From: Promethearchaeati archaeon SRVP18_Atabeyarchaeia-1
GTDB lineage: Archaea > Asgardarchaeota > Atabeyarchaeia > Atabeyarchaeales > Atabeyarchaeaceae
DNA length: 64,000 bases
Assembly: GCA_037308085.1 (NCBI GenBank)
Contig: CP147779.1
Coordinates: 2,304,001-2,368,000, forward strand
Reading direction: 5' to 3'
Both the position numbers and the translations under genes were made by a program. Shown in pieces: positions 47,879 through 56,705 of the stretch. The notes under the pieces are model-generated. The model was not told the origin of the DNA. It made no database searches and was given only the letters and a program-made list of their open reading frames with translations. Every line of letters begins with the position of its first letter. The first letter of the stretch is position 1.

Positions 47879-50800
47879 TTACAGAGTTGTCACTTGAATC
47901 GGTACCGCGACGCCGATCATGGTCACATCGTACATGTCGTACATGATGGTGTAGAGCTTGCACCGTCCCTTGGCAGTAGCCAGTATATCTAGAACTATGC
48001 CACCATCGGTAAGGGGTTTTGAGATTGTCTGAATGTTTACACCGCCCTCGAGAAAAGCCATGTTTGCCGCTAGAAATACCTTCGCTATAGGACATATCGA
48101 GTGATCCTTTGGCACAAGTGATAGTTGTACTCGCTCCCCCAGCTTCAGTGTAGTCTTGGGAAGTTTTGCTTCGAAGTTGAACATGGACTTTATCTTCTTG
48201 TAGTCTATTGTTTCCACTCCATCGAGCCTGACTAGGAGCTTGGTGCCGGCCCGAAGTCTTCTGTTTTCAGATGATTGGTCGCTGCCAGCCTCGTCATCAA
48301 GCGCGATTGTTCTGGCTACATTCCGTGAATCCAACCCGTAGTCTTTCTCTGTCAGCGTGACTGCTCTTGTCGGATCATCTTTTGTATGCGTGAAGTAGGC
48401 GAATTTGGGCATACTATCGAAGCCCTCCATTGTGGCGAAGAGTTCGATTAGTGCGCGCGTATCAGCCGTAGAATTCAGCCTGCCTGCTACGAGCCTCTTG
48501 GCGACGAACTTGAATCCCTTCTTAAACAGCATCTGGTGTCTGACGTCATTCGAAGGGCCAAGCACACGAAGTGCCGTCGCTGTCGTCTCGAGACTTCCTC
48601 CCCAAGTCGATTGGGACGCTTCCCAGTGGACTTCACTTCCCCCTGCTCCTTCGATGGCTCTTGATTCGATCAGCTTGAGTGCATCCTTCCGCTTTCCCTT
48701 GTCGCCTACATGTAGCGCTATGTTTGCCGCGTCCTCCACAGTCGACATCGGAGCCGCGAACTTTTCATTGAGTGGGAGAAGTGCGTTATCATGTACGTCT
48801 CTCTTCACAAGTTCCTGTATCGGCCTCTCAACAAGTGGAGCCGTATCCATCTTGAACTTCTCTACCTCCATGAGGGGAGCGAGGTTCTTCAATACTTTTC
48901 TTGTGACGTCGGGAGAACCATCCTTGGCACCCTCCCAGAGGGAATACATGCCATCTTGCTGGAGGAACTTCGCCATTCTTGAGAGACCAGAACTGATCAT
49001 TTGTGTTATTTCCTGTGATGTTTCGCCGAATTTCCATGCGACGGCGAGTCCACACAGCTTTGCACTTGTCTGCTCGGCGCATCCATATGGATACTGAACA
49101 AGGGCTCTAACCGAATCTGTGAGTATCGCTTTCACAGATCCATACACGAAGACTCTCTTTCCAGCGCCGATCTGTAGCTCTTCATTCTCTTCCAGCATGC
49201 TGAGAGCGGAAACCGTTACTCGCTCACTAGCTTGTGCATTGACTTCTTTTGTCATCAGGTCGCTGCCAATCGTCGATGTTAGCTCGGCCTCGACAACCCC
49301 AGGTCCGGGCAGCTTGAAGTCCCTGATGCCGTCACCCTCGACTTCGCCTTCGTAGGAGCTTCCGTCAGGGAGCCTAATTCGCAGACTTCCTTTTCCTTCG
49401 GCAAGGTGGTAGATTGCTTTCCCATAGTATTCGTCGCCATAATCTATCATCGAAGGTATGTCTAAATCAACCACGACACTCTTGTCGGCTTCCACGCTGG
49501 CAGACTTTGAGATATAGTCGACGCCGGTGAATGCGTAGACTTGCACCTTCCAGCGTGTTATCGTGTCTCCGAGCTTGATGCGCTCCTCGTGAACACCATC
49601 CATCTCGATGAGCTTGTATGCTAGTAGCTTAGGGAACCAAGCTCTTCTTGGCGTTACAGTCATTGCCGCCTGCACCGTTGTGGTAATGACAGTTGTCAAT
49701 TTGTCTCTATCTGCCATGTTGTAAGCGCCGACACCCACGGCCATCAGTTTCGCCGGGGTGGGTGATCTGGCAGAAAATGAAGGTGGTGGCGCGGCCATCT
49801 TTGCCATTGGTGCACCCGCGGCCATCATGTGAGCCAAGGGACGTACCGCTTCTTCTGCTTCAACCTCATGTACCTCTTTGCGTTCGATGAATTGCTCCAT
49901 CAGCTCCTGGATGCTTGGAAGCGCCCGTAAATGGTTGTAGATGTCTTTTCCGAGCTTTCCTGTAATATTCTCGGTGTCGAGTCTCTCGTCGAATACCATG
50001 AGAAGGCACTCAGCCTTTCTGTTTGATTCGAGAGTTATCGTCACCTCTTCGCCTGGCTCCGCTTTCTCAGGAGCCCTGATCTGCAGTTTGAGAGTCTCGG
50101 GGTGAAACACGACACTTCTCCCTTCAAACAAAGTGCTCTCATCGGCGTTGATCATGCATCCGACGAAGACAATCTGGTATGGAGCGCTATTATCAAACGA
50201 TAATTCTAGACCCTCTTTTGCAGAAGCCTTAGATGCTTGCCTAGCCTCACCGGTGAAGGGGTTAACGGTGTATACTGAGAGGTAGTCGAGGTTTCTAGTC
50301 ACCTGAACCTCGATCTTCTCCGACTCGGCGTTCCTGACTATGACAGGCGTCGTCGAGGCACCTCGTGGTGCCCAGTTGATCCCGCGAAGACTCCTCCCAT
50401 CAGGAATCGGGACTAGCGCCATATTCACGATCTCACCCAGGTTGCCGACCTGGATCTCCTGGCGTTCCTCGACTCTTGTGGACTGAAGCGTGACGGAAGC
50501 TGTGTTCCCGTCCGGAGTGGAGAATTCCAGTCTGAACGGTCCAGTGTGTCCACTTAGGCGCCATTGGAACCCAAGCGATCCGTTTTTGGCGTCGAAGGAC
50601 TTCTCCTCAACGACGACTTTGCAAAACTCGCAGTATAGTCCGATTCTAACGGAACCAGTGTAGGGCTGGTTGAGAACAGTCATCTCGAACTCCGCATCTA
50701 GGGCGTCACCACTGATAACTTGCTTCTTGATCTGGGCCAGCATGGGGCTGAGGGTGTGCTGGGCTATTGTGAAGTCACAGCTGAAGGTCTTCCTCTCCGC

Positions 50801-51241
50801 CTCAGTTGCCTTGCCAATCTTCCGCTCTGACGTAGTGGTTACTGCCGCAGTGTATTCACCCGTTTCCTCCGCGCCTCTTAGCTCATAGACATATACTCCA
50901 TAGTCGTCGAGCGTGAAGTCGTCGCTCGTCATAGCACGCTTGCCTGCAAACATGACCTCCAAGTGGGCAGTGTTGCGCCCACAGCCCGGCGATGCAATAA
51001 GCAGCCTCACGACGTCACCAGGATTGTAGACTCTCCTGTCCGATACGACTGCACCGAAGGCAAGAGGACCAATCTTGGCGGGCGCATAGGTCTGCCCCTT
51101 GATCTTCAGATCCTTGCCTAGCTCCCCTATTCTCGGGTATATGACCCGATCATCCAGGTCATAAATGAAATAATGCCCGACCTTAACTCCTTTCGCTGCA
51201 CCACCACTTTCTCTCAACAGTATCACGCTCCGCATTATCAC
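47879..51241 (-). CDS. Alpha-2-macroglobulin-like thioester protein
   Basis: DRRVY.PG (MG2), low-complexity bait-like region, R..FP, D.IT.W, YPYGCAEQ thioester (49070-49084), Q.DG..S.W, ST.DT..A. Confidence 0.85.
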   Translation of the reverse strand: MIMRSVILLRESGGAAKGVKVGHYFIYDLDDRVIYPRIGELGKDLKIKGQTYAPAKIGPLAFGAVVSDRRVYNPGDVVRLLIASPGCGRNTAHLEVMFAGKRAMTSDDFTLDDYGVYVYELRGAEETGEYTAAVTTTSERKIGKATEAERKTFSCDFTIAQHTLSPMLAQIKKQVISGDALDAEFEMTVLNQPYTGSVRIGLYCEFCKVVVEEKSFDAKNGSLGFQWRLSGHTGPFRLEFSTPDGNTASVTLQSTRVEERQEIQVGNLGEIVNMALVPIPDGRSLRGINWAPRGASTTPVIVRNAESEKIEVQVTRNLDYLSVYTVNPFTGEARQASKASAKEGLELSFDNSAPYQIVFVGCMINADESTLFEGRSVVFHPETLKLQIRAPEKAEPGEEVTITLESNRKAECLLMVFDERLDTENITGKLGKDIYNHLRALPSIQELMEQFIERKEVHEVEAEEAVRPLAHMMAAGAPMAKMAAPPPSFSARSPTPAKLMAVGVGAYNMADRDKLTTVITTTVQAAMTVTPRRAWFPKLLAYKLIEMDGVHEERIKLGDTITRWKVQVYAFTGVDYISKSASVEADKSVVVDLDIPSMIDYGDEYYGKAIYHLAEGKGSLRIRLPDGSSYEGEVEGDGIRDFKLPGPGVVEAELTSTIGSDLMTKEVNAQASERVTVSALSMLEENEELQIGAGKRVFVYGSVKAILTDSVRALVQYPYGCAEQTSAKLCGLAVAWKFGETSQEITQMISSGLSRMAKFLQQDGMYSLWEGAKDGSPDVTRKVLKNLAPLMEVEKFKMDTAPLVERPIQELVKRDVHDNALLPLNEKFAAPMSTVEDAANIALHVGDKGKRKDALKLIESRAIEGAGGSEVHWEASQSTWGGSLETTATALRVLGPSNDVRHQMLFKKGFKFVAKRLVAGRLNSTADTRALIELFATMEGFDSMPKFAYFTHTKDDPTRAVTLTEKDYGLDSRNVARTIALDDEAGSDQSSENRRLRAGTKLLVRLDGVETIDYKKIKSMFNFEAKLPKTTLKLGERVQLSLVPKDHSICPIAKVFLAANMAFLEGGVNIQTISKPLTDGGIVLDILATAKGRCKLYTIMYDMYDVTMIGVAVPIQVTTL

Positions 51242-51501: not shown

Positions 51502-53682
51502 ATGCAGAGGGGGACAATAGTGAAGAGAGGAAAATGCCTCTTCTCAACCGTCATTATTCTCTTTATTCTAGTCACAGTGGTGTCGCCCATGGCGGGCGAA
51601 ACCAACCCTGTGACCGGGAAATCACAAGCGGCGTCTGGGAAGACAGGGCAGGACCCAGCAGGGTTCGGCGCGGGGGTGCCCGCCCAAAGAGATCCGGCAA
51701 CTCCCGTGGGCTCTGACACTAATTGGTTCGGAGTGACTTTCCCAAGTGGGCACTACTACAGCTTTTACCAGATTCAGACGCCATACGGTGTAGGTCAACA
51801 TATCGACACCGTAGGAACCAGCGATTATAACTACACCTTTATGGGTTGCACGACGGCAAACTATACGGTCGACTCCAGTGGGAGCATACAAGTAACTGGC
51901 TGGTTCAGGCAGTACGATATACTACCTCCCGATGCACTCGACCACAGAGTGCTGGACATCTACGTGCTGGATGCAGGCACTCTTGCTCATATCCTGAACC
52001 AGCACATCCTTAACGGCACTGATGGGACTGGGTGGGTATACAAGAACGTGACAGTAGATGGGTTGACCCCTGGAGTGACGGTGAAGATAGGATTCGGTAT
52101 GGGAAAATGGTGGACTGCAGACTGGCAACTAACACGTGAATGGGTAATGCTTAGTAACGCCAGTAACGGCACCGTAGTGTCCGGAAATGCTTCTTGGACA
52201 GGAACGACGAACCCGGGTGGCTACCACTACAACTTATATCAGGTCCCAACGCCCTACGGCCAAGGCTGTCACATCGACAGCGCGGGTAGCAGCAGTGTAC
52301 CAGCCCAAGGCGGATACGACTTCTTCGCCTTCAGCAATGTGAGCTACCCGGTCGGTAGCGACGGAGGCATAGAGGTGCGAGGCTACTTCAGGCAGAGTGA
52401 CATATTTGATTCCTTCACGATGCCTGGAAGGAGAGAAGTGAGAATATTCATTATGTATTCAAACGATAATGCCACGATCGTCAAGCAGCTGCCAGTCATC
52501 AGTTACACCTACGGTACTGGCTGGGTGCACAGAGAAGTAATGGTTACTGGGTTAAGCCCTGGAAGCCTTGTCAAGATAGGCGTTGGAAGACACGACGGCT
52601 GGTCCACCGACTGGCAATTGACGGCCGAATGGGCGGCAATAGAGGTCGTAGGCAATGTCTCCTGGAGTAACATGACAGGATCAGGCCCGCAAGTGACCAG
52701 TCCAGTAGGTAACTACTGTAACTTCTATCCGATCATAACGCCGTATGGTCCGGGCCACCATATTGACACTAATGGGAGTGGCGGCAACCCCAACAACTAT
52801 GCCTTCTACGGCTGCACTCTTGCAGACTACCCTGTCGGCAACGATGGAAGTCTAGAGGTTAAGGGACACTTCAGGCAAGATGATTCGCTGGCGCCGCTCC
52901 TTTTCCCCCAAAGGAGACTTCTCTGGGTTTTCATCATGTACTCTGGTGACAACTACACGATAGTACGCGAACAGATAGTCCTCAACTATACTGATGGAAC
53001 AGGCTGGTTGTACAGAGATATTACCATCAACGGTTTGACGCCAGGGAGTTTCGTCAGGATAGGGTTTGGCAGGTACAACTGCTGGTCAACCGACTACAAG
53101 TTGGTAGTGGAGTGGGCAGGAGTAGAGATTAGCAGCCCAACTTGGGGTCCCTTTGGCGCCGGTGGAGGAGGAGGTGGAGGAGGCGGACTGGGCGGCCCTG
53201 ATTTCACGCCAAATCTCGTTTTGATCATTGCATCAGGTGGCACGTTGATAACGGTCCTGGGCATTCTCGTCGTTGTATCCAGACGCAGAGCAGGAGCGTC
53301 ACATCGCGAAAATGCGCCTCAGAGAGATTTGCGAATGCGGATAGAGCCACAGGAGACTCGCGCCGTTCTCGTCCCTCCTTCAATGAGGTGTCCAAGTTGT
53401 GGTGGCGCCATCGAGCCTCCAGATTCAGCGTATTGCGTACACTGCGGCACAAAGCTTCAAGCACCCGCTGCAGGGAACGTGACCGCCCGACAGAGTGAGA
53501 CCTCAAGCACCCTCAAGGGCTGCATGATTTGCGGAATGCAAATCAAGGGGAGTGATATAGCAGTAAGGTGTCCCTACTGTGGAAATAGGGCGCACAGGAT
53601 TCATATGCTCGAGTGGCTTCATGTGAAAGATTACTGCCCAGTGTGCCAAAGGCACCTCGATGAACAGGAATTCGGAGAATAG
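51502..53682 (+). CDS. Type I membrane protein: three extracellular beta repeats, TM, zinc ribbon and C-terminal RING-type domain
   Basis: Signal peptide; three TPYG.G.HID...FRQ.D...GTGW...GLxPG repeats with many NxS/T sequons; Gly9 linker; TM followed by RRR; CPSC..CVHC; C-x2-C-x12-C-x2-C-x4-H-x2-H..EW..CPVC. Confidence 0.85.
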   Translation: MQRGTIVKRGKCLFSTVIILFILVTVVSPMAGETNPVTGKSQAASGKTGQDPAGFGAGVPAQRDPATPVGSDTNWFGVTFPSGHYYSFYQIQTPYGVGQHIDTVGTSDYNYTFMGCTTANYTVDSSGSIQVTGWFRQYDILPPDALDHRVLDIYVLDAGTLAHILNQHILNGTDGTGWVYKNVTVDGLTPGVTVKIGFGMGKWWTADWQLTREWVMLSNASNGTVVSGNASWTGTTNPGGYHYNLYQVPTPYGQGCHIDSAGSSSVPAQGGYDFFAFSNVSYPVGSDGGIEVRGYFRQSDIFDSFTMPGRREVRIFIMYSNDNATIVKQLPVISYTYGTGWVHREVMVTGLSPGSLVKIGVGRHDGWSTDWQLTAEWAAIEVVGNVSWSNMTGSGPQVTSPVGNYCNFYPIITPYGPGHHIDTNGSGGNPNNYAFYGCTLADYPVGNDGSLEVKGHFRQDDSLAPLLFPQRRLLWVFIMYSGDNYTIVREQIVLNYTDGTGWLYRDITINGLTPGSFVRIGFGRYNCWSTDYKLVVEWAGVEISSPTWGPFGAGGGGGGGGGLGGPDFTPNLVLIIASGGTLITVLGILVVVSRRRAGASHRENAPQRDLRMRIEPQETRAVLVPPSMRCPSCGGAIEPPDSAYCVHCGTKLQAPAAGNVTARQSETSSTLKGCMICGMQIKGSDIAVRCPYCGNRAHRIHMLEWLHVKDYCPVCQRHLDEQEFGE

Positions 53683-53715: not shown

Positions 53716-54177
53716 CTACGCGGGCAGGGCATGAAGTAGAGTGAGTTTCAGGTTCTTTACTCCTTTTTTGCTTATCATCGTTTCGGAGACTTTCTTGAGT
53801 TCCTTTGCCTTGCCCTCCATGGCTATGATCTCCATGCAGTTATGCTCGTCGAGGTGAAGATGAAGCGATGCCTTCACCGCTACCGCTGAGTCGTGCTGAA
53901 TGTCAATGAGCTTGTCAACCAGAGACCTAACCGCGTGATCGTAAACCATTGAAATCGTCCCCACCAATATGGCATCCTCATCAGTGGTCCACTTGCTTTC
54001 CAGAATGAAGTTTCTGAGGGCCTCCCTGATTGCTTCTGACCTCTTGAAGTACCCCTTCTTCCTTGACGTCTCGTCGAAGCTGACCAGCAGGTCTTCAGGG
54101 AGACTCATGCTTATTCGAGTGATCTCCTCCTCCGAACTTCCCTTTTCGTTTCTCGAGGCGAACATCCTTCCACTCAA
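53716..54177 (-). CDS. nikR: Nickel-responsive regulator NikR
   Basis: RISMSLP..L...FD, RSEAIR.A.R, YDH, QH, HLHLD..NC.E. Confidence 0.93.
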   Translation of the reverse strand: MSGRMFASRNEKGSSEEEITRISMSLPEDLLVSFDETSRKKGYFKRSEAIREALRNFILESKWTTDEDAILVGTISMVYDHAVRSLVDKLIDIQHDSAVAVKASLHLHLDEHNCMEIIAMEGKAKELKKVSETMISKKGVKNLKLTLLHALPA

Positions 54178-54356
54178 ACCCCCATCAGCGTGAAAAGGCA
54201 GCGAGCTTCTCTCTTAGGTCTTCACGATGGAGTAATATTATCTTGCATGTATTTATGTGACTAGTATTACAAACATCAGGAGTCTTATTACTGGCTTCGA
54301 CGGGAGTCTCAAGACATTCAATGACCTTCCATTTGGCGATGCCATTATGGACGCCG

Positions 54357-55427
54357 CTACTCTGGCGTGCTGCCTCTCTTGGCGACAACAATTTGATCAG
54401 TGTTCAAGTTCATTACTATCTCAGCTATGTCGCTTGCGTATTCAGCTGCCCTTATTATGCTCTCAATCATCAGTGTGAGCCCTGCCACTTCTTGGATGTG
54501 AGTCTCGGCAAGGACCGAGTCCATTAACTCCTTCTTCAGCGAGGCCACTTTCTTTGCTTTCCGAACTACTTCTTCGGCAAACCTGAAGTCTCTTTTGAAT
54601 AGGGATTCTATTGACTCGTCGAATGCGGAGACTGCTGCCAGACTTGTCGACTCAATCTTCTTGAACATCTGACCATCTAAGAAGTGTTCCAATATCGTGA
54701 TGTTCCTCGCTATTTCGACTGCGTGATCAGCTGTTCTCTCTACAAATTTCGTTATTAACCTGTACGCGAGACACTCCTTACCTGTGGTCAGACCGATCCC
54801 CCGAAGTACGTTCATATCTTCGACTGCTGCCTTCAGTTGACGGACAATGTACAGGCCAAAGCGGTCGACTTCGTCGTCTCTGTCGATAACGTCTTTGGCG
54901 GATTCTCTATCGAGTTCCTTCAAGGCAGATAGCGCATCCTTGTGCATCGAAGATGCGATGAGACTCATTCTTCTGAGAGCACTTTGGACCGAAAGCTCCG
55001 TATAGCTAAGCAGCACTTTGATGGTGATCTCATTCTGGGAATCAGCAATGATCTCTGTGCCCATCAGCTTTCTTCTAGCGACGTCTTTTATTGCATTTCT
55101 TTGACCCGGGGGCAGCCGGTGTTTCTCTTCCCTAACGCTAATCGCGTTGTAGCCTACTAAGTAAAGGGAGATGATCTTTCTCATGATTGATTCAGGGTCA
55201 TCTGTCGCCTCGACTCCGACCAAGGCATCCATAGGACCTCCGGGTTTCCTCAGCCCTTCTGGGACTATCGATAAGCTGTTATCATTTTGAGTTATCAAAG
55301 CTACTTGGCTCCCTTTCTGTAAGCCCATCTGAGTGACCCATTTCTTTGGCAGGGAGAGAATGAACGTTGAGTCTCCTGTGACTTGGAGTTTCCTTACTTC
55401 TCTTTTCTCAGTCCATACTTCATTCAT
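54357..55427 (-). CDS. AbrB-PhoU phosphate uptake regulator
   Basis: RKLQ.TG.ST..SLPK.W AbrB domain plus PhoU repeats (D.EVDR, ER.ADH); divergent from pstS. Confidence 0.9.
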   Translation of the reverse strand: MNEVWTEKREVRKLQVTGDSTFILSLPKKWVTQMGLQKGSQVALITQNDNSLSIVPEGLRKPGGPMDALVGVEATDDPESIMRKIISLYLVGYNAISVREEKHRLPPGQRNAIKDVARRKLMGTEIIADSQNEITIKVLLSYTELSVQSALRRMSLIASSMHKDALSALKELDRESAKDVIDRDDEVDRFGLYIVRQLKAAVEDMNVLRGIGLTTGKECLAYRLITKFVERTADHAVEIARNITILEHFLDGQMFKKIESTSLAAVSAFDESIESLFKRDFRFAEEVVRKAKKVASLKKELMDSVLAETHIQEVAGLTLMIESIIRAAEYASDIAEIVMNLNTDQIVVAKRGSTPE

Positions 55428-55467
55428 TTCATTCTCACCGCTTCGTTGGTTAACAGGTTTTACAGCA

Positions 55468-55523
55468 TATATATTATCAATAGTCTTCCATAGTCGTCTA
55501 TATTCTACCTGGATTTCCTATAT
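55468..55523. promoter_or_regulatory. 10-bp-phased C(T/C/A)ATA(G/T) repeats in the regulator-pstS intergenic region; candidate phosphate operator
   Basis: TATATA at 55468, CAATAG at 55478, CCATAG at 55488, CTATAT at 55498 and CTATAT at 55518. Confidence 0.45.
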
Positions 55524-55577
55524 AAGGCTGTCTCCATCTATGTTCATGCGTAAGAAAACAAGTAGGAGAAAAGAGAG

Positions 55578-56705
55578 ATGAACTACAAGAAGATAGCCAT
55601 CATTGAAGTGTTTGCAATAGTAGCAGTAATAGGCGTCGCATCATTCGTCATTGTAAACTCTGGAGCACCCGCACCCGTTAACATAAGCGGAGCAGGAGCA
55701 ACATTCCCAGCACCGTTGTATCAAGAGTGGAGTCAACAGTATCAGAGTCTTACAGGCGTTAAAGTAAACTACCAAGGTATCGGAAGCGGAGGCGGCATAA
55801 CACAGTTCAAGGCTAAGACTGTCGACTTTGGGGCAACTGATCCTCCGATGGGAGCACCTGACTGGGCCGCCGGAGATTTGCACGTCCCGACAGCCATCGG
55901 CGGTGTCGTGATAATCTACCATATCTCAGGACTACTACCAAGTGCGAGTGCTAAACTAAACTTCACTGGAGCGATCATATCTGCCATTTACGAGCAAAAC
56001 ATAACGCACTGGAACGACGCGGCACTCACAGCGATCAATCCAGGTCTAACACTGCCCAATACGTTGATAGTGCCAGTCCACAGATCAGATTCAAGCGGCA
56101 CAACCCAAGTCTTCACCAGCTTCCTCTCCAACGAGAGCTCAAACTGGAAGACTCACTACGGTGCGGGCAAAGTCATTAGCTGGCCATCGTCCGGAGAAGT
56201 GGGTGGATCAGGAAACCCAGGCGTTGCCGCAGGCGTGCAACAAAACGATAATTCTGTGGGCTACGTTGAACTCACATACGCGCTGTCAAACTCTATCAGC
56301 TATGGCAAAGTGCAGAACGCCGCAGGAAAGTTCATTGATCCGAGCCTGGCGAGCCTCCAAGCAGCTGCTAACGCATGGTCCTTCAATCTTCCTCCTGGAA
56401 ATGAGAGCTGGGCAAACGTACCATCCTTCTTCAGCTTGAGAGCCACAGGAGTTGTCCCAGACGATGCGTACCCAATAACTAACCCCACGTACATCATTGT
56501 CTACAAAGACCTCAGCGTCGTACCTGGCATGACCCTAGCCAAAGCCAAGGCTCTGGCATACTTCCTCTGGTGGGGAGTACACGATGGACAAAACTACTGT
56601 GCAGGTCTTTCATACGTCAAGCTGCCGGCAAGCGTCGTACAATTAGACGAGGCAACGCTTCAAATGATGACCTTCGGCGGAACACCGCTTCTTCCGTGGT
56701 CCTAA
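55578..56705 (+). CDS. pstS: Phosphate ABC transporter substrate-binding protein
   Basis: GAGATFPAPLY, GSGGGI, DFGATD, HRSDSSGTT, GYVE, YPI. Confidence 0.95.
   Translation: MNYKKIAIIEVFAIVAVIGVASFVIVNSGAPAPVNISGAGATFPAPLYQEWSQQYQSLTGVKVNYQGIGSGGGITQFKAKTVDFGATDPPMGAPDWAAGDLHVPTAIGGVVIIYHISGLLPSASAKLNFTGAIISAIYEQNITHWNDAALTAINPGLTLPNTLIVPVHRSDSSGTTQVFTSFLSNESSNWKTHYGAGKVISWPSSGEVGGSGNPGVAAGVQQNDNSVGYVELTYALSNSISYGKVQNAAGKFIDPSLASLQAAANAWSFNLPPGNESWANVPSFFSLRATGVVPDDAYPITNPTYIIVYKDLSVVPGMTLAKAKALAYFLWWGVHDGQNYCAGLSYVKLPASVVQLDEATLQMMTFGGTPLLPWS

Follow-up and report, generated by a model that had tools for sequence, protein, structure and literature searches.

Whether an archaeal surface protein can carry the machinery for ubiquitylation at its inner end is the question raised by a gene of Promethearchaeati archaeon SRVP18_Atabeyarchaeia-1. 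The gene lies within a window of 64,000 nucleotides of contig CP147779.1 (C1:2304001-2368000), and the genome consists of this single contig of 2,808,651 bp. It occupies positions 51502-53682 of the window (C1:2355502-2357682) on the plus strand as an uninterrupted open reading frame of 726 amino acids. The public gene call on the identical sequence (P0002) begins at an alternative GTG start at 51520, six codons downstream, and yields 720 amino acids. The product is taken, with moderate confidence, for a membrane-tethered RING-type ubiquitin ligase (E3) that binds a polymer outside the cell through its jelly-roll repeats. An initial annotation, made from the letters of the sequence, had compared the protein with the ectodomain-transmembrane-RING ligases of eukaryotes, and the predicted topology, in which the repeats lie on the outer and the RING on the inner face of the membrane, bears out the likeness.

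To regulate membrane proteins by ubiquitin, with transmembrane RING ligases and sorting by ESCRT, counts as a trait of eukaryotes. Work on the Asgard archaea has so far been concerned with the operon for ubiquitin, the activating (E1) and conjugating (E2) enzymes and a small RING protein, and with the link between ubiquitin and ESCRT. No description of Asgard transmembrane RING proteins with a receptor-like build was found in the literature, supplementary tables and subscription journals being outside the coverage. RING domains are named in the searchable Asgard literature only within lists of eukaryotic signature proteins. The genome paper of Atabeyarchaeia-1 likewise mentions RING finger domains only as items of such a list (PMC11291895).

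The C-terminal finger and the ubiquitin system

The finger is located at 53521-53646, exactly where a RING-like domain had been placed in the initial annotation. Its eight putative zinc ligands follow the pattern C674-x2-C-x12-C-x2-C-x4-H-x2-H-x10-C-x2-C715, a variant RING-H2 arrangement (C4-H-H-C2) recognised by its spacing, profile matches and predicted fold. Two zinc ions would be expected in the finger, one putatively at C674/C677 with H698/H701 and the other at C690/C693 with C712/C715, and one in the zinc ribbon that precedes it. A genome-wide search with zf-RING_2 gives 28 matches within 27 open reading frames. The spacing is identical in 27 domains of the genome, this one and 26 paralogues, which share the form C-x2-C-x12-C-x2-C-x4-H-x2-[H/D]-x3-[W/Y/F]-x6-C-P-x-C without any insertion or deletion. 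Among the family domains that were profiled, 22/22 match both Prok-RING_1 (best 7.9e-11) and zf-RING_2 (best 2.5e-8). The profile of these 22 domains, when compared with solved structures, matches the RING domains of RNF24 (3.2e-10), Arkadia (6.5e-9) and EL5 (3.1e-8), as well as RNF165, RNF126, ZNRF1, ZNRF3, RNF13, RNF38, AMFR and HRD1.

The structural comparison leads to the same family. A model predicted from the family alignment (zinc-free; predicted local distance difference test, pLDDT, 85) contains two short strands and a central helix. Its top 50 Foldseek neighbours in the PDB are nearly all RING or U-box E3 domains, with template modelling (TM) scores of 0.6-0.77 and a root-mean-square deviation (rmsd) of 1.3-2 Å, and RNF13, of the PA-TM-RING group, is among the neighbours. 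The top 50 of an exhaustive VIA search over 48,161 representative chains are again almost only RING or U-box domains (Z 5.5-7.8). Judged by profiles and predicted model, the C-terminal finger is a RING domain; a PHD finger, named at the outset as the alternative, is not supported. Matches in NCBIfam to RNA polymerase subunit P, TFS and a rubrerythrin-like family lie far below their cut-offs and were set aside as generic zinc-knuckle similarity.

The ligand pattern departs from the canonical RING at the second knuckle. Ligands 3 and 4 form C-x2-C, where the canonical arrangement is C-x-H. When the finger is aligned with RNF24 by hidden Markov model (HMM), the canonical position of ligand 3 is filled by the second Cys of CPxC and that of His-4 by a variable residue. 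The first Cys of CPxC, which is invariant, presumably stands in for His-4. A shift of ligands of this kind has been described as an 'additional cysteine C3B' in the small RING protein of Caldiarchaeum subterraneum, which is biochemically active (PMC5654768). Ligand 6 is His in 22/27 of the paralogue domains, Asp in 5/27 and Cys in 0/27.

The residues predicted to contact E2 are I676, W705, P713 and R717. An I or V follows ligand 1 in 27/27 domains and a P follows ligand 7 in 27/27, while the aromatic position of the helix is W in 24/27 and Y or F in 3/27. A basic residue stands one or two positions after ligand 8 in most of the 27. In the C. subterraneum RING protein (srfp), mutation of the equivalent I30, W58 and R69 impaired in vitro ubiquitylation (PMC5654768). 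Of the contacts proposed in the initial annotation, the W and the P of CPxC (W705 and P713) are kept across the family, and 'EW' is not conserved as a pair. On sequence and model, E3 activity of the protein is likely.

The genome holds the partners that such a ligase would need, as had been expected earlier on general grounds. A single ubiquitin-ESCRT cluster at approximately C1:323-333 kb encodes Vps4, EAP30/ESCRT-II, Vps28, UEV-Vps23, an 83-amino-acid RING protein, ubiquitin, E2 (C1:331839-332252) and a ThiF-type E1 (C1:332362-333300). Ubiquitin in company with ESCRT-I and ESCRT-II marks the organism as an Asgard archaeon. The E2 has the HPN motif and the catalytic Cys. The 83-amino-acid RING, encoded beside ubiquitin, E2 and E1, aligns without gaps to the studied domain and has identical spacing. 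An Asgard cascade of E1, E2 and RING has been reconstituted (bioRxiv 10.1101/2023.07.25.550441). Of 41 genomes of the phylum that were searched, the same 33 have both E2 and the tail of zinc ribbon and RING, and neither was found in the other 8, which are spread over four families. This co-distribution is suggestive of a link to ubiquitin. A complex prediction for the RING and the genome's E2, both supplied as alignments, gave scores of 0.01 and 0.12, where the mark is 0.32, and counts neither way.

The cluster also contains an open reading frame of 420 amino acids between the EAP30/ESCRT-II gene and vps28, at C1:326171-327433 on the minus strand (L040:6172-7434). It has a Cas12f1-like TNB domain (TnpB-like, E 6.6e-11) and is probably an insertion of the IS200/IS605 type.

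Membrane layout and the recurring cassette

The N-terminal region (51502-51600) consists of a basic KRGK and, beyond it, some 20 hydrophobic residues that the hydropathy scan places at approximately residues 12-31. The sequence is compatible with a cleaved signal peptide, as named earlier, and also with a retained signal anchor. Three repeats follow, and then a Gly-rich juxtamembrane linker (53140-53214) that holds a run of nine Gly (Gly9, residues 554-562, 53161-53187) ahead of the membrane. The single transmembrane helix, placed by hydropathy at residues 572-592, is followed by S-RRR, with the Arg triplet at 594-596 (53215-53289). The zinc ribbon on the predicted cytoplasmic side lies at 53389-53445 and reads C630-x2-C-x11-C-x2-C648 (CxxC-x11-CxxC). 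It has sub-threshold Pfam matches to DZR, DUF7575 and Zn_Ribbon_1 and is kept in homologues and paralogues. The linker, the helix with its RRR and the zinc ribbon were all features of the initial annotation and are retained here.

The many N-glycosylation sequons noticed earlier are likewise present. There are 15 N-x-S/T sites in total, 14 in the ectodomain and 1 in the cytoplasmic part. The 14 compare with 4.3 +/- 1.8 expected in the ectodomain, and 0/2000 shuffles of its own residues reach this number. All of the zinc ligands fall within the predicted inner part, and 14/15 sequons within the outer part. The sequons outside, together with the Arg residues and zinc ligands inside, are consistent with a type-I or bitopic topology, in which the repeats are predicted to face outwards and the RING inwards. 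A search of RNA sequencing runs returned none with the gene listed, which carries no information on expression.

The same layout is found in metagenomic homologues. P0003, P0015, P0025 and P0029 combine one to three repeats with a Gly-rich linker, a transmembrane helix, RR(R), the zinc ribbon and the RING, at 36-47% identity, and poly-Gly linkers are present also in P0025, P0015 and P0029. P0003 is a complete protein of 555 amino acids; it carries two repeats and has a signal peptide of its own. P0015 additionally carries an FG-GAP propeller. P0029 has one repeat and is flanked, like the studied gene, by a glycyl-radical enzyme gene and nikR; it looks like a positional orthologue.

The tail is not bound to the repeats. 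Of the 27 proteins of the genome's RING family, at least four are receptor-like, and in three paralogues this layout is combined with a different outer domain: SBP_bac_5 (827 amino acids), PPC repeats (719 amino acids) and an FG-GAP propeller (691 amino acids). The best matches to the tail in other genomes carry an FG-GAP propeller (G002, same family), an SBP5-like domain (G001, same genus) and a beta-helix (G037, a distant relative), each with a transmembrane helix, RRR(R), zinc ribbon and RING. Because the same tail is joined to varied outer domains, the cytoplasmic cassette is seen as the constant element and the outer domain as exchangeable. This recurrence in sequence indicates that the architecture of outer domain, transmembrane helix, zinc ribbon and RING is selected for.

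Several further arrangements of the family were observed. In G002, a protein of 396 amino acids (L028:107-1297, minus strand) has a sequon-rich outer part, a transmembrane helix, RR and the zinc ribbon, and is without a RING. It stands in tandem with the FG-GAP-transmembrane-zinc ribbon-RING gene of that genome and could represent either a partner that lacks the RING or a copy in decay. In the studied genome, C1:1326843-1327937 (plus strand) encodes a soluble protein of 364 amino acids in which residues 224-266 and 318-359 each form a RING of the family type. At C1:2026880-2031514 (minus strand), three paralogues in tandem, 433-464 amino acids long, each end in the zinc ribbon and RING and have no transmembrane helix.

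The outer repeats and the gene neighbourhood

The three repeats are located at residues 68-226 (51703-52179), 227-383 (52180-52650) and 384-546 (52651-53139). By alignment and HMM they are 41-45% identical to one another and share 45 invariant columns, and invariant Asp and Glu residues hint at a structural metal site; a BLASTP comparison of the 726-residue protein with itself gave the diagonal match only and did not pick them up. The ectodomain contains 12.7% Gly, 3.5% Trp and 6.7% Tyr, in keeping with the earlier description of three Trp/Gly-rich repeats of about 155 residues.

Profile libraries do not recognise the repeat. The outer part has no match in Pfam up to E 1, and likewise none in NCBIfam. 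The carbohydrate-binding module (CBM) families of Pfam gave no match up to E 1 with 15 repeat units, and the repeat profile gave none with the PDB sequences. A word-indexed search of 5.8 billion proteins returned only seven relatives. A profile search over 1.84 billion cluster representatives found 162 with the repeat at E <= 1e-3. Among 61 of the 162 representatives, the domains that co-occur with it are Peptidase_S8 (7), clostripain C11 (4), reprolysin-type M12 (4), PKD, Big, CARDB and similar domains. These partners mark the repeat as an accessory module that works outside the cell and is attached mostly to secreted peptidases.

Repeat 3 was taken as the unit for modelling. The model (pLDDT 87.6) is an all-beta sandwich of nine strands, and it matches CBM4, CBM15, CBM16, CBM22, CBM29, the Eph ligand-binding domain, MAM and reelin repeats, with VIA Z of 9-10.8, an rmsd of about 3 Å over 120-140 residues and Foldseek E of about 1e-5. 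Comparison with Atlas clusters gave TM scores of 0.56-0.65, CBM_4_9 included. The fold of repeat 1, a CBM4/9-like beta-jelly-roll, is assigned by homology to repeat 3. Taken from profiles and model, the repeat is an unannotated sequence family of a known CBM4/9-like jelly-roll fold, the likeness being at superfamily level. The earlier suggestion of a new domain, for which folding and a Foldseek comparison of the repeat and the RING had been proposed, thus holds for the sequence family and not for the fold. A binding function is plausible, with a glycan or a protein as the putative ligand. With about 160 representatives among 1.84 billion clusters, the family merits a definition of its own.

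Within the genome the repeat is confined to this gene. It is present in 13/251 sampled genomes of the phylum, and 11 of the 13 belong to family f6 (11/60 f6 genomes). Neither E2 nor the RING tail was found in the four f6 genomes searched. As the repeat is centred on f6, where these four genomes gave neither E2 nor the tail, it was probably recruited into the RING cassette in the present lineage. The distributions of repeat and RING are largely complementary, this lineage excepted.

Upstream of the gene, at 47879-51241 of the window on the minus strand, is a divergently transcribed gene for a protein of 1120 amino acids with weak alpha-2-macroglobulin matches (A2M, TED, bait region) and no obvious signal peptide. 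A functional link with this neighbour is unsupported, as a different gene of 269 amino acids takes its place in the syntenic locus L072. Downstream, 53716-56705 contains nikR (minus strand), a gene for a MazE/AbrB-PhoU fusion regulator (minus strand) and the start of the pstS phosphate-transport operon (plus strand). The adjacency of nikR is kept in L072, and nothing ties nikR functionally to the RING gene.

Proposed function and comparison with known systems

The protein would be a bitopic membrane glycoprotein with three CBM4/9-like or galactose-binding-like jelly rolls outside, which most likely bind an extracellular polymer, either glycan or protein. Inside, past the transmembrane helix and the Arg stop-transfer, the zinc ribbon and the variant RING-H2 would follow. 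The RING would recruit the ubiquitin-charged E2 of the genome. Ubiquitin would then be moved to membrane-proximal lysines, which could be the protein's own or those of membrane proteins nearby, and the products may be readable by the UEV-Vps23/ESCRT proteins of the same genome.

In this proposal zinc binding, E2 binding, ligase activity, the kind of ligand and any coupling of ectodomain to tail are inferred. A number of points weigh against it. With C-x2-C in place of C-x-H at ligands 3 and 4 the assignment of ligands depends on the zinc-free model. Ligand 6 is Asp in five paralogues, and the W of 'EW' is replaced by Q in the closest homologue, P0003, which has EQ. Searched as a whole against Pfam, the protein gives sub-threshold matches only (Prok-RING_1 1.3e-4, zf-RING_2 1.5e-3). 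Its own zf-RING_2 score of 25.3-25.7 bits is below the Pfam cut-off of 27.3, and the isolated domain reaches 29.2 bits with Prok-RING_1 (cut-off 29.1) over profile positions 5-32 of 54 only, its second half aligning better with zf-RING_2 (3-44 of 44). The co-distribution of tail and E2 weighs less than the raw counts, because the genomes are related. On the outer side, a CBM-like fold predicted at Z of about 10 is insufficient for inferring carbohydrate binding. A search of 40 relatives, one of them a genome of the same genus (94% complete), did not find the outer repeats, so the fusion with the RING is lineage-restricted.

Other explanations share parts of this evidence. The finger might be a PHD-like reader, given that a spacing of C4-H-x2-[H/C]-...-C2 formally resembles C4HC3 and that C-x2-C-x12-C-x2-C-x4-H-x2-X-x10-C-x2-C overlaps the PHD consensus. 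Against this, none of the 27 domains has Cys as ligand 6, which is always His or Asp, the profile matches are RING-H2 ligases, and Prok-RING_1 and zf-RING_2 are the Pfam families that every member matches. The central RING helix is present in the model, which finds its closest structural neighbours among RING and U-box domains; the sole neighbour with a PHD name, PHF7, is an E3-E2 complex. PHD fingers are missing from the top 50 listed by Foldseek and VIA, an absence that does not by itself exclude the family. Altogether the PHD reading is highly improbable and is rejected. A surface glycoprotein or adhesin, in which the zinc modules are a non-catalytic handle for docking or oligomerisation (on cytoskeleton, ESCRT or nucleic acid) and no E3 function exists, is also unlikely. 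Some eukaryotic RINGs are scaffolds without ligase activity, for instance those of GATOR2 and IFT-A, which are among the matches, and both the sub-threshold zf-RING_2 score and the non-canonical ligands would suit such a role. What speaks for catalysis instead is the retention of the E2-contact positions over 27 paralogue domains, the location of a like RING next to the genes for ubiquitin, E2 and E1, the identical presence and absence of RING and E2 over 41 genomes, and the in vitro E3 activity of the homologous operon RINGs (PMC5654768; bioRxiv 10.1101/2023.07.25.550441).

A third explanation, the full reading of the initial annotation, accepts the ligase and adds signalling. An extracellular ligand, perhaps a glycan, would toggle the RING, for example by clustering, and the signal would be passed on through ubiquitylation. 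The same tail is joined to classic ligand-binding domains (SBP_bac_5, PPC, FG-GAP), again in relatives, and the repeat fold is common to CBMs, the Eph receptor ligand-binding domain and MAM. It is established that RING E3s are often activated by dimerisation. Coupling by a change of conformation is unlikely, however, across a single transmembrane helix, the flexible Gly9 and some 35 residues of cytoplasmic linker, which leaves only clustering as plausible. The homologous repeats, being mostly on secreted peptidases, would fit the tethering of substrate equally well. A ligand-gated receptor ligase is speculative and, on the whole, unlikely. The membrane-tethered E3 with polymer-binding repeats is preferred.

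A wider idea can be formed from the exchangeable outer domains, with low confidence. The cassette of transmembrane helix, Arg residues, zinc ribbon and RING could define an Asgard-wide family of receptor-like E3s with interchangeable sensors (CBM-like, SBP5, PPC, FG-GAP, beta-helix), in which ligand-induced clustering would lead to ubiquitylation of membrane proteins and to UEV-Vps23/ESCRT sorting. If true, prokaryotes would have had a forerunner of the down-regulation of receptors by ubiquitin, a mode of signalling so far unknown in prokaryotes. The genome's approximately 27 RING proteins, several of them built like type-I receptors, give the locus its wider interest. If the family is active, the diversification of E3s and membrane-tethered ubiquitylation would predate the eukaryotes. 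The tail, together with the organism's own E1, E2 and ubiquitin, provides clonable test objects for the targets of archaeal ubiquitylation.

In comparison with known systems, the repeats share their predicted fold with the CBM4, CBM9, CBM15, CBM16 and CBM22 modules and, as with many CBMs, form an appendage on secreted hydrolases. Unlike CBMs, the repeat is without sequence matches in Pfam or the PDB, and it is joined to peptidases, not to glycoside hydrolases. The Prok-RING_1 family (PF14446) is matched by all 22 profiled domains of the finger family, the studied domain standing barely at its cut-off and with partial coverage of the profile. The archaeal operon RINGs (C. subterraneum srfp, PMC5654768; the Helarchaeia RING E3, bioRxiv 10.1101/2023.07.25.550441) are of the same RING type, with the extra Cys at the knuckle of ligands 3 and 4 and the I/V, W and basic E2-contact positions likewise conserved. 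These proteins are soluble, approximately 80-100 amino acids long and encoded in the operon, whereas the studied protein has 726 amino acids, a membrane anchor, a large outer part and an extra zinc ribbon, and its gene lies about 2 Mb from the ubiquitin operon of its genome.

The eukaryotic PA-TM-RING ligases (RNF13, RNF167, GRAIL/RNF128, RNF43/ZNRF3 and plant RMR) likewise have a signal peptide, an outer or lumenal binding domain, a single transmembrane helix and a cytosolic RING-H2, the corresponding topology being predicted here. Their outer domain is a PA domain, while the studied protein has a triple CBM4/9-like jelly roll and no PA match. It differs further in the zinc ribbon ahead of the RING and in the C-x2-C at ligands 3 and 4. 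As the PA domain is absent, the protein is not a member of the PA-TM-RING group, though it would work in a like manner. Independent assembly of the two architectures is likelier than shared descent.

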